Shown: positions 56,750-57,946 of the stretch, one piece after another | How positions within the stretch are numbered: position 1 is the stretch's first letter | How the letters are laid out: each line of letters opens with the position of its first letter | Assembly (NCBI RefSeq): GCF_003334385.1 | Contig: NZ_QOWN01000011.1 | DNA length: 64,000 bases | Reading direction: 5' to 3' (one strand) | Origin: Escherichia coli | Lineage (GTDB): Bacteria; Pseudomonadota; Gammaproteobacteria; Enterobacterales; Enterobacteriaceae | Program-made: the position numbers and the translations under genes | Notes under the pieces: generated by a model | The model's input: only the letters and a program-made list of their open reading frames with translations | The model's database searches: none | Told to the model about the DNA's origin: nothing

Positions 56750-57946
56750 ATGAAAACCTGGATATTTATCTGTATGTCCATAGCAATGTTGCTATGGTTT
56801 TTAAGTACGCTAAGACGTAAACCCAGTCAAAAGAAAGGCTGTATTGACGCCATTATACCTGCGTATAACGAAGGCCCGTGTCTGGCGCAGTCACTGGATA
56901 ATCTACTGCGTAACCCTTATTTTTGCCGGGTAATTTGCGTTAACGACGGCTCCACGGACAATACCGAAGCGGTCATGGCGGAAGTCAAACGCAAATGGGG
57001 CGACCGCTTTGTTGCCGTCACGCAAAAAAATACCGGTAAAGGTGGTGCGCTGATGAATGGCCTCAATTACGCCACCTGCGACCAGGTTTTTTTAAGTGAT
57101 GCCGACACCTATGTTCCGCCCGATCAAGACGGAATGGGCTATATGCTGGCAGAAATTGAGCGCGGTGCCGATGCCGTAGGCGGCATTCCCTCTACTGCGT
57201 TGAAAGGCGCGGGTCTGTTACCGCACATCCGCGCGACCGTAAAGTTGCCGATGATTGTTATGAAGCGCACGCTACAGCAGCTCCTGGGTGGCGCACCGTT
57301 TATTATCAGCGGTGCCTGCGGGATGTTCCGTACTGATGTATTGCGTAAGTTCGGTTTCTCGGATCGTACTAAAGTCGAAGACCTTGATCTCACCTGGACA
57401 TTGGTGGCAAACGGCTACCGTATTCGGCAGGCGAATCGCTGCATCGTATACCCACAGGAATGCAACAGCCCGCGTGAGGAGTGGCGTCGCTGGCGGCGTT
57501 GGATTGTGGGATACGCGGTCTGTATGCGCCTGCATAAAAGACTTTTATTTAGCCGCTTCGGTATCTTCAGTATATTTCCTATGCTGTTGGTTGTGCTTTA
57601 TGGCGTTGGGATTTATCTCACTACCTGGTTTAATGAATTCATCACCACCGGGCCGCATGGAGTGGTGTTGGCAATGTTTCCGCTTATCTGGGTCGGCGTA
57701 GTTTGTGTTATTGGTGCTTTTAGCGCCTGGTTTCATCGTTGCTGGTTGTTGGTGCCTTTAGCGCCGCTTTCCGTTGTGTATGTATTATTAGCTTATGCCA
57801 TCTGGATTATTTATGGACTTATTGCCTTTTTTACTGGACGCGAACCTCAGCGCGACAAACCCACCCGCTATTCCGCACTGGTGGAAGCGTCAACCGCTTA
57901 TTCCCAACCTTCTGTCACAGGAACTGAAAAACTATCTGAAGCTTAA
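56750..57946 (+). CDS. yaiP: membrane-anchored family 2 glycosyltransferase
   Basis: 398-aa ORF: N-terminal TM helix, GT-A domain (IIPAYNEGP, VNDGSTDNT, SDAD), Arg/Trp-rich WRRWRRW segment, C-terminal multi-helix hydrophobic domain. Confidence 0.85.
   Translation: MKTWIFICMSIAMLLWFLSTLRRKPSQKKGCIDAIIPAYNEGPCLAQSLDNLLRNPYFCRVICVNDGSTDNTEAVMAEVKRKWGDRFVAVTQKNTGKGGALMNGLNYATCDQVFLSDADTYVPPDQDGMGYMLAEIERGADAVGGIPSTALKGAGLLPHIRATVKLPMIVMKRTLQQLLGGAPFIISGACGMFRTDVLRKFGFSDRTKVEDLDLTWTLVANGYRIRQANRCIVYPQECNSPREEWRRWRRWIVGYAVCMRLHKRLLFSRFGIFSIFPMLLVVLYGVGIYLTTWFNEFITTGPHGVVLAMFPLIWVGVVCVIGAFSAWFHRCWLLVPLAPLSVVYVLLAYAIWIIYGLIAFFTGREPQRDKPTRYSALVEASTAYSQPSVTGTEKLSEA

Follow-up and report, generated by a model that had tools for sequence, protein, structure and literature searches.

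Escherichia coli yaiX is probably translated from an ATG inside yaiP, through a 134-nt out-of-frame overlap

Results

The yai operon and the yaiX reading frame

The window, meaning the whole 64,000-nt stretch of Escherichia coli contig NZ_QOWN01000011.1 that was analysed, carries the operon yaiS, yaiP, yaiX and yaiO (Table 1). YaiP matches the NCBIfam PgaC_IcaA-like model below its cutoff, and yaiO has a strong Shine-Dalgarno sequence and an ATG 1 nt past the yaiX stop. In K-12, IS2A interrupts yaiX near window position 58095 and yaiS contains an amber codon, whereas the window has intact copies of both. According to EcoGene, repair of yaiX' restores YaiP-dependent clumping (PMC3531124). The operon shares with the pgaABCD-type operons a PgaC/IcaA-like GT2 synthase, a deacetylase, an outer-membrane barrel and a reported link to clumping, but differs from them in having a PIG-L deacetylase, a YaiO barrel and an extra acetyltransferase.

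Table 1. Coordinates of genes, candidate start codons and junction features in the window
Feature	Position	Strand	Description
yaiS	56069..56740	+	PIG-L family deacetylase, first operon gene, intact, 223 aa
yaiP	56750..57946	+	GT2 glycosyltransferase, frame 2, 398 aa, stop TAA 57944-57946; RefSeq annotation
Alternative ATG	57795..57797	+	236-aa YaiX model
Weak Shine-Dalgarno-like GGA	57804..57806	+	Invariant yaiP Trp codon and next base, 6 nt upstream of ATG 57813
Strongest synonymous-site constraint zone of yaiP	57806..57838	+	Encodes YaiX M-D/E-L-L-P-F-L-L-D
yaiX, preferred model	57813..58505	+	Predicted 230-aa LbH acetyltransferase; ATG in 17/17 enteric-type loci, onset of constraint, same start as MG1655 b4579, pLDDT 91.9
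Putative dual-coding overlap	57813..57946	+	134 nt; yaiX +1 relative to yaiP
Near-cognate ATT candidate	57870..57872	+	Three codons 5' of WW
Ancestral start-codon position	57876..57878	+	ATG/GTG in non-enteric homologues; CAC (His) here
WW (TGG-TGG)	57879..57884	+	First conserved YaiX-family residues; invariant in all enteric-type and non-enteric loci with a locatable junction
Ancestral yaiP stop position	57887..57889	+	TGA in 6/6 non-enteric loci compared; GCG here
CTG start used by PGAP	57924..57926	+	193 aa, WP_024183734.1
yaiO	58507..59280	+	Outer-membrane beta-barrel (TIGR04390), last gene of the conserved four-gene operon

The yaiX frame (frame 0) is open from 57792, just past TAG 57789-57791, to TAA 58503-58505, and yaiP is open to its own TAA, meaning both frames are open over the shared segment. 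Upstream of the yaiP stop, the yaiX frame contains three ATG, GTG or TTG codons: ATG 57795, ATG 57813 and TTG 57822, which would overlap yaiP by 152, 134 and 125 nt respectively. An in-frame codon scan found no further ATG, GTG or TTG between TTG 57822 and GTG 58065, which lies within the beta-helix repeats. This agrees with a first-pass annotation of the locus, which had reported no canonical start between the yaiP stop and the repeats, a first downstream GTG inside the repeat domain, and an out-of-frame overlap of 134-152 nt; the recomputed lengths are the same, with ATG 57813 as the favoured start. That annotation correctly placed ATG 57795 and ATG 57813 in frame, but in naming them as the only canonical starts it overlooked TTG 57822.

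Initiation at the yaiP stop itself was also considered. ATG 57946, which forms TAATG with this stop, was rejected as the yaiX start, as its ORF is in frame 1 and spans just 12 codons (57946-57984). A TAATG start combined with a frameshift on the A-run was rejected on the same frame-1 position of this ATG, and on the conservation of yaiX-frame sequence upstream of it in homologues. The earlier suggestion of coupled re-initiation is not supported, there being no in-frame start codon at the yaiP stop to use.

The arrangement of yaiX and yaiP is fixed at this locus, rather than a product of chance or a sequencing artefact, because 4450 of 5426 complete E. coli genomes contain the stretch 57500-58600 with a coverage of at least 80%, and the same overlap geometry recurs across 17 enteric-type loci.

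Existing annotations disagree on the YaiX N-terminus. The curated MG1655 gene b4579 (yaiX', NC_000913.3 / EcoGene) starts at 382872, equivalent to window position 57813, and has the same 134-nt overlap with yaiP; no published justification for this curated start was found. Prodigal-type calls also use ATG 57813 (P0001, 230 aa, 1737 member sequences), and a 236-aa KEGG variant has been described (PMC13058169). PGAP starts vary between strains, producing proteins of 193 aa (CTG 57924), 197 aa (CTG 57912) or 174 aa (a later GTG), with both CTGs downstream of conserved yaiX-frame sequence. The automated RefSeq models therefore probably shorten YaiX.

YaiX is predicted to be a stand-alone left-handed beta-helix protein

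YaiX is predicted to adopt the hexapeptide-repeat LbH fold. Its AlphaFold model is a beta-helix (pLDDT 91.9), in which residues 21-50 have a pLDDT of 87-91 and the first 20 residues are of lower confidence (62-74). Pfam families PF00132, PF25087 and PF25084 are recorded on its homologues, and its top PDB matches are LbH domains, those of ST0452 and GlmU. The best Foldseek match is the C-terminal LbH acetyltransferase domain of ST0452 of Sulfolobus tokodaii, an archaeal-type GlmU (PDB 5z09, 2ggo; E = 1e-12, 34% identity over 185 columns). Unlike ST0452, YaiX stands alone without the nucleotidyltransferase half, and has its own N-terminal segment of approximately 45 residues containing the WW motif. 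Residues 47-210 match positions 233-393 of the 393-position NCBIfam profile TIGR03992, and the score of 129 bits falls short of the curated cutoff of 292 that equivalog-level membership, and with it a substrate assignment, would require, with all GlmU models far under their cutoffs. The idea that YaiX is an N-terminally decayed bifunctional GlmU was rejected, as the approximately 120 listed homologues are all stand-alone proteins of around 190-240 aa, encoded in the same operon.

The conserved N-terminus of YaiX lies within yaiP

The junction was compared across 30 related loci, of which 17 enteric-type and 7 non-enteric loci contributed to the count of ATG codons; the codon-by-codon comparison of the GT2 gene used 6 non-enteric loci, the remaining one (L017) having no GT2 ORF at that place. 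In non-enteric homologues, from Pseudomonas, Sphingomonas, Acinetobacter, and alphaproteobacterial and other MAGs, the acetyltransferase is part of the same PIG-L/GT2/LbH/YaiO operon, and starts with (A/G)TG-TGG-TGG (MWW), 14 nt before the GT2 stop. This 14-nt overlap was found in all six non-enteric loci with a readable GT2, in five of which the Shine-Dalgarno sequence is supplied by an AGG Arg codon. By contrast, in 17/17 enteric-type loci the ancestral start is absent, CGY replaces AGG, and the GT2 gene extends 17-83 nt past WW. The last approximately 19 codons of yaiP (57887-57943) would be a tail added through loss of the ancestral stop, because non-enteric GT2 homologues stop at the equivalent of 57887-57889.

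The WW codons are now 68 nt inside yaiP, counted from its stop. The motif W-W-x-R-x-x-(L/I)-(I/T)-P-x-x-L...K-x-(Y/F)-L is conserved with wobble at yaiX third positions, while the yaiP tail encoded by the same bases is only 30% identical; therefore translation would begin upstream of 57879. Within yaiP, synonymous difference over 57869-57943 is 0.25, relative to 0.58 upstream (p ~2e-6, although the phylogenetic relatedness of the loci means such p-values overstate their independence), and the Val codon overlapping WW is GTG in every sequence with Val there (synonymous difference 0.00). A conserved YaiX N-terminus within yaiP argues against start misprediction as the source of the overlap.

These data weigh against non-canonical starts downstream of the conserved segment. 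The first-pass annotation had proposed an ATT/CTG-type start near 57950-57990 as an alternative, and orthologue alignment as a check. The alignment places the onset of yaiX-frame conservation upstream of the yaiP stop, with WW 71-111 nt upstream of the proposed region and 45 nt upstream of CTG 57924, rather than conservation beginning at or after these starts. A start near 57950-57990 would drop conserved sequence that includes residues modelled at a pLDDT of 87-91. A non-canonical yaiX start downstream of yaiP is consequently rejected on this comparative evidence.

It is very unlikely that the RefSeq/PGAP start, CTG 57924 or CTG 57912, with an overlap of 23-35 nt, is the one used. The CTG model is annotated in thousands of RefSeq genomes, AGGA is just upstream of CTG 57924, and the equivalent codon is GTG, TTG or ATG in several relatives. 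However, the AGGA adjoins the CTG with zero spacing, and PGAP itself is inconsistent, with three starts across strains. The equivalent codon is CTG, GTG, TTG or ATG in most loci but a non-start GTT or GTA in two (L027 and L025), a pattern equally well explained by a hydrophobic residue. Furthermore, this model discards the invariant WW and a conserved 15-codon segment with yaiX-frame wobble, in conflict with the distant homologues, which start at MWW.

Initiation upstream of WW at the near-cognate ATT 57870, giving a 77-nt overlap as a relic of the ancestral initiation region, is quite unlikely. In enteric loci, this codon or a neighbour (-6 to -12 from WW) can invariably act as a start (ATT, ATA, ATG or TTG), the yaiP Tyr codon over it is invariably TAT (synonymous difference 0.00), and PGAP takes an ATG at the equivalent position in Enterobacter sp. 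PGRG2 and Superficieibacter. An AUU start is used by infC, and similarly the yaiX ATT sits where relatives carry ATG; but unlike infC, it has neither a Shine-Dalgarno sequence nor a favourable context, and conserved coding signal extends upstream of it. The ancestral AGG having been replaced by CGY, there is no anti-Shine-Dalgarno pairing (+0.4 kcal/mol), and the G+C-rich region from -30 to +30 is the most structured of any candidate (-16.8 kcal/mol). The codon pattern is equally consistent with a hydrophobic I/M/L residue, and such a start would leave unexplained the conserved ATG and the constraint 57-64 nt upstream.

Evidence for initiation at ATG 57813

ATG 57813 is the probable start of yaiX, within the region of yaiP encoding its last transmembrane helix. 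We infer ribosome initiation at 57813 from several features of the comparison. Firstly, 17/17 enteric loci, but only 2/7 non-enteric loci, have an in-frame ATG located -66 (or -63/-69) relative to WW, and the equivalent of ATG 57813 persists even where the yaiP residue switches from Tyr to His. None of the 17 enteric-type loci has a yaiX-frame stop between this ATG and WW; as evidence for the start this is only weakly informative, in that most yaiP codons there cannot yield +1-frame stops, although stops in this stretch do occur in 4/7 non-enteric loci. Secondly, the 9-codon window 57812-57838 has a synonymous difference of 0.14, relative to 0.58 over 321 upstream yaiP codons, the lowest of 369 yaiP windows (Mann-Whitney p ~1e-6, subject to the same non-independence of loci), whereas the non-enteric control loci have no synonymous dip in the corresponding window (61/83 vs 105/138). 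Suppressed synonymous change in yaiP thus points to selection acting on the second, yaiX, frame. This constraint could instead reflect an RNA-level requirement rather than a peptide, which would still imply a functional initiation region. Thirdly, YaiX residues 1-9 match the enzyme core in conservation (0.68 vs 0.65). Points against this start are the poor constraint on residues 10-22 of the extension (synonymous difference 0.53), and the lower model confidence over the first 20 residues.

The sequence context provides further, if qualified, evidence. The GGA upstream of ATG 57813 is a weak Shine-Dalgarno sequence, which counts against the preferred start, with a predicted anti-Shine-Dalgarno duplex of -3.1 kcal/mol; TGGA or TGGG nevertheless precedes the ATG in all enteric loci. 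The -30 to +30 region is 65% A+U and the least structured among starts upstream of WW (-3.9 kcal/mol), with lower structure found only at the rejected CTG 57924 (-3.4 kcal/mol). Hence ATG 57813 has the best initiation context among the candidates upstream of WW.

Initiation at ATG 57795, alone or together with 57813, is unlikely. It is the first ATG past the in-frame stop, is used in some GenBank/KEGG models (PMC13058169), and is kept in E. coli, including a lineage of 96.7% identity, and in E. whittamii. Yet outside Escherichia it occurs in one enteric-type locus only (Citrobacter cronae, L025), it has no Shine-Dalgarno pairing (+0.9 kcal/mol), and the surrounding yaiP synonymous variation is normal (0.53-0.70).

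It is extremely improbable that yaiX lacks its own start, and is instead expressed as a YaiP-YaiX fusion through a +1 slip on the T6 run at 57827-57832. Although the yaiX frame is +1 relative to yaiP, and TTT-TTT-A would let tRNA-Phe re-pair perfectly after the shift, the run is not conserved in 4/17 loci (L006 and L022-L024), and is followed by an ordinary codon, rather than a stop or rare codon that could stall the ribosome. No GT2-LbH fusion was present among the best-scoring 120 of 526 homologues, and slippage would leave unexplained both the conserved ATG and a constraint that starts upstream of the T6 run.

Five enteric loci have an additional ATG or TTG 2-4 codons before WW, and therefore the start in use may differ between enteric lineages. 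Full-text searches on yaiX and yaiP yielded no start-site, N-terminal peptide or proteomic data.

Discussion

The yaiX start is most plausibly the canonical ATG 57813, such that a 230-aa protein would share the last 134 nt of yaiP, through its first 45 codons in the +1 frame. This arrangement would have emerged from a widespread four-gene operon through two mutational losses in the enteric lineage. One would have removed the ancestral (A/G)TG-TGG-TGG start of the acetyltransferase, along with its AGG Shine-Dalgarno sequence; the other would have removed the GT2 stop codon, resulting in the gain of a poorly conserved tail of approximately 19 codons. Initiation would then have shifted to the next usable upstream ATG, made by the Tyr/His-Gly codons of yaiP (NAT-GGA), around which the sequence is U-rich and unstructured, with GGA as a weak Shine-Dalgarno sequence. 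Intermediates survive in the Salmonella and Enterobacter bugandensis types, in which the GT2 gene runs 17-32 nt beyond WW, and which have a proximal ATG or TTG.

Unidirectional overlaps have been proposed to arise by the loss of stop or start codons (Fonseca, Harris and Posada 2013; PMC3887535). The 3' elongation of yaiP after stop loss, and the replacement of the yaiX start by an upstream in-frame start, both fit this model, and comparing non-enteric with enteric loci shows each step directly. The difference is that both events appear to have affected one junction, with intermediates surviving. The yaiP/yaiX overlap reveals no new mechanism, but since both mutational steps and their intermediates remain visible in living lineages, it represents a clean teaching example.

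The earlier remark that the overlap is unusually long is upheld, although the overlap is already in the curated MG1655 annotation. Palleja, Harrington and Bork (2008) found no genuine co-directional overlap greater than 60 bp among the 715 examined (PMC2478687), and yaiP/yaiX would be a well-supported same-strand overlap far beyond this approximately 60-bp limit, which that large survey took as a sign of misannotation. A parallel is holD/rimI, a same-strand, out-of-frame overlap of 32-56 bp in Enterobacteria (PMC2478687), in which conservation likewise spans enteric genera and includes the ends of both proteins. However, at least 68 nt of yaiP/yaiX (from WW to the yaiP stop), and probably 134 nt, would be read in both frames. 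The yaiX gene model and the route by which such overlaps originate are already known, and the overlap's length makes the case mildly notable.

A tentative extension is that the 22-residue YaiX leader, comprising MDLLPFLLD and a linker, is an overprinted novelty of Enterobacteriaceae, in which residues 1-9 would be under selection as a functional module of hydrophobic or amphipathic character. An overprinted leader would derive from the stretch that codes for the juxtamembrane motif and last transmembrane helix of YaiP, read in the +1 frame. We infer, rather than observe, any leader function beyond supplying a start; if there is one, the leader might, for example, tether the acetyltransferase to the membrane synthase, rather than being merely the by-product of a moved start.

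The position of the start also has practical consequences for the study of this family. In thousands of RefSeq E. coli genomes, the YaiX models starting at CTG (193 or 197 aa) or GTG (174 aa) lose the family's conserved N-terminus, whereas the curated K-12 annotation, KEGG and Prodigal-type calls give proteins of 230 or 236 aa. The correct start is needed for expressing or repairing yaiX, and thereby for work on both the clumping phenotype and the 2026 report of multidrug resistance from a YaiX fragment.

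Translation of the yaiX frame within yaiP

The yaiX frame is +1 relative to yaiP, and an in-frame TAG (57789-57791) precedes its ATG 57795, ATG 57813 and TTG 57822. The first-pass annotation had recognised only the two ATG codons as canonical starts ahead of the repeats, overlooking TTG 57822, but was correct that no ATG, GTG or TTG lies between the yaiP stop and the repeats; the next is GTG 58065, within the beta-helix repeats. CTG 57834 and ATT 57870 are the other start-capable codons in E. coli 5' of the TGG-TGG at 57879-57884 (WW), the first conserved residues of YaiX. A TAATG at the yaiP stop (57944-57984 region), in which ATG 57946 overlaps the stop codon, resembles a classic coupling signal; this ATG is in the third frame, where it opens only a 12-codon ORF (MLKRKIFRLQTR) overlapping the yaiX coding sequence.

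Features of the yaiS-yaiP-yaiX-yaiO locus and gene models of yaiX
Feature	Position	Strand	Description
yaiS	56069-56740		PIG-L deacetylase
ykiC	56606-56725	minus	39-codon small-protein gene, wholly antisense within intact yaiS
yaiP	56750-57946		GT2 glycosyltransferase, 398 aa
yaiX open frame	57792-58505
yaiX, PGAP/RefSeq	CTG 57924		193 aa, WP_024183734.1
yaiX, PGAP, other strains	CTG 57912		197 aa
yaiX, PGAP, other strains	GTG ~57981		174 aa; GTA mutated to GTG
yaiX, Prodigal-type calls	ATG 57813		230 aa; cluster of 1737 sequences
yaiX pseudogene b4579, curated MG1655	382872 (MG1655)		starts ATG-GAC-TTA-TTG, equivalence to window 57813 verified here; 134-nt overlap with yaiP
yaiO	58507-59280

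The junction was compared across 17 enteric-type loci, from E. coli (two lineages), E. whittamii, Citrobacter (including a second paralogue, and C. cronae), Salmonella (four types), Enterobacter (two), Superficieibacter, a plasmid-type E. coli copy and a related MAG. None has a start codon immediately ahead of WW, this position encoding His, Tyr, Pro, Arg, Leu or Ala, and all have lost the GT2 stop, such that the glycosyltransferase extends 17-83 nt beyond the first W (68 nt in E. coli). The yaiX frame nevertheless retains the motif W-W-x-R-x-x-(L/I)-(I/T)-P-x-x-L-(P/S)-x-x-(L/V)-K-x-(Y/F)-L-(K/R), with third-position wobble past WW (AAG/AAA, CGT/CGA/CGC, CTT/TTA/CTG, CCC/CCA/CCT), whereas the yaiP tail on the same bases is of low complexity, and only 30% identical. 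Therefore the WW segment is translated in the yaiX frame. This rules out both the PGAP CTG starts and the non-canonical start at 57950-57990 previously suggested as a fallback. The segment must also be traversed by ribosomes on yaiP, whose Val codon over WW is GTG wherever Val occupies this position. On this comparative evidence, genuine dual coding covers the start codon and a minimum of 68 nt.

The start codon of yaiX

ATG 57813 is set apart from the other candidates 5' of WW by four lines of evidence. An equivalent in-frame ATG (-66 from WW, or -63/-69 with an indel) is present in 17/17 enteric loci, versus 2/7 non-enteric loci, and is retained when the overlapping yaiP residue switches from Tyr (TAT-G) to His (CAT-G). 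The leader it opens, M-(D/E)-L-L-P-F-L-L-(D/E), is 68% identical over the enteric loci, matching the enzyme core (65%); identity across linker residues 10-22 is 41%.

Constraint on yaiP was quantified from a codon alignment of the 17 genes (60-97% amino acid identity), as the share of same-amino-acid sequence pairs with different codons. This synonymous difference averaged 0.58 across 321 upstream codons, and fell to 0.14 over the nine codons at 57812-57838, the minimum of 369 sliding windows (Mann-Whitney p ~1e-6, treating sequences as independent and ignoring the phylogenetic relatedness of the loci); this result was unchanged in a 12-sequence non-redundant subset. It returned to 0.53 at 57839-57868, then dropped again, to 0.25 between 57869 and the stop. 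Because the third position of a yaiP codon is the second position of a yaiX codon, this pattern is the expected signature of dual coding beginning at ATG 57813, although the constraint at 57812-57838 could be on the peptide, or on the RNA of the initiation region. The matching zone was unconstrained in non-enteric loci (61/83, versus 105/138 upstream), which keep a start at WW itself. A T6 run at 57827-57832, kept in most but not all enteric loci, would allow a perfect +1 tRNA-Phe slip from the yaiP into the yaiX frame.

ATG 57813 also has the best computed initiation context of the candidates 5' of WW, with GGA 6 nt upstream (-3.1 kcal/mol with the anti-Shine-Dalgarno) and the least folded -30 to +30 region (-3.9 kcal/mol; 65% A+U). 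CTG 57924 has AGGA at zero spacing. ATG 57795 may serve as an extra minor start; it lacks a Shine-Dalgarno, is found only in Escherichia and one Citrobacter cronae locus, and lies amid normal yaiP synonymous variation. The near-cognate ATT 57870 may likewise contribute, also lacking a Shine-Dalgarno, in G+C-rich surroundings (fold -16.8 kcal/mol). AlphaFold modelled the 230-aa YaiX from ATG 57813 with a mean pLDDT of 91.9 (87-91 for residues 21-50, the WW segment, and 62-74 for residues 1-20).

Origin of the overlap

Among 526 YaiX homologues, distant proteins (~50% identity, ~206 aa) open M-W-W, aligning to H-W-W at 57876-57884. The non-enteric loci compared (from a Pseudomonadota MAG, Pseudomonas viridiflava, Sphingomonas, Alphaproteobacteria, Acinetobacter and others) share the four-gene operon of PIG-L, GT2, left-handed beta-helix acetyltransferase (LbH) and YaiO. 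Recurrently, their GT2 ends ...TGREPxRDKPTRYxxVVx-TGA, and LbH starts in the +1 frame at (A/G)TG-TGG-TGG, 14 nt ahead of this TGA. In 5/6 loci (L004, L014, L015, L016 and L019), the Arg codon of TRY is the rare AGG, which supplies the LbH Shine-Dalgarno, and has apparently been retained for this reason; it is CGY in every enteric locus, where the M-W-W start is lost.

The 14-nt coupling overlap would have lengthened through loss of the ancestral start, its Shine-Dalgarno and the GT2 stop, with initiation shifting to an upstream ATG already present. Intermediates are extant: in the Salmonella and E. bugandensis types, GT2 is extended by no more than 17-32 nt, an ATG or TTG lies 2-3 codons 5' of WW, and the leader has diverged (MDYQASLPD). 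Distal and proximal ATGs coexist in Enterobacter sp. PGRG2 and Superficieibacter. Hence the start in use may vary by lineage. Stop loss and start replacement are also how overlaps arise in the Fonseca et al. 2013 model (PMC3887535), with which this origin agrees. Palleja et al. 2008 judged none of 715 co-directional overlaps >60 bp to be real, the longest genuine case being holD/rimI at 32-56 bp (PMC2478687). Their length-versus-orthologue rule would flag yaiP/yaiX as a combined 5' and 3' extension error, yet the evidence here indicates this overlap is real.

The operon in E. coli

The operon lies between tauA and frmRAB, and the stretch 57500-58600 is found at >=80% coverage in 4450/5426 complete E. 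coli genomes. The tauA-yaiS intergenic region at 55600-56050 has a very low G+C content (24-31%), making it a plausible candidate for a silenced promoter region of the operon. yaiX is whole in the window, whereas IS2A breaks the K-12 copy at ~58095 (window position). A single base separates the window from MG1655 over 56190-58090: position 56624 in yaiS is C (CAG, Gln) here, and T (TAG) in K-12. The 185-aa K-12 YaiS is therefore an amber-truncated version of the 223-aa protein intact in the window, and, counting the IS2A insertion in yaiX, K-12 has two lesions in the operon. Where a genome is identical to the window, YkiC is called by PGAP, which demotes intact yaiS to a pseudogene 'missing C-terminus'.

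The nearest solved structure to the YaiX model is the C-terminal LbH acetyltransferase domain of Sulfolobus tokodaii ST0452 (34% identity). In NCBIfam, YaiX residues 47-210 match the C-terminal third of archaeal-type GlmU, and YaiP resembles PgaC/IcaA, both under cutoff. EcoGene records that repair of yaiX' in K-12 causes YaiP-dependent clumping (PMC3531124), which fits a surface-polysaccharide operon. Two diverged whole operons occur in Citrobacter braakii ATCC 51113 (loci L008 and L010), and another diverged copy (~60% YaiX identity) in E. coli, on a contig (L026) and a plasmid (homologue entry P0051). Hence the operon appears to be mobile.

Implications for annotation

Databases conflict over the yaiX start, with KEGG-derived models being 236 aa (PMC13058169). 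The gene model favoured here is not new, as the curated K-12 annotation already has it. Rather, this work adds comparative support for the curated start, from which we infer that the PGAP CTG and GTG models are too short, cutting YaiX by 33, 37 or 56 residues.
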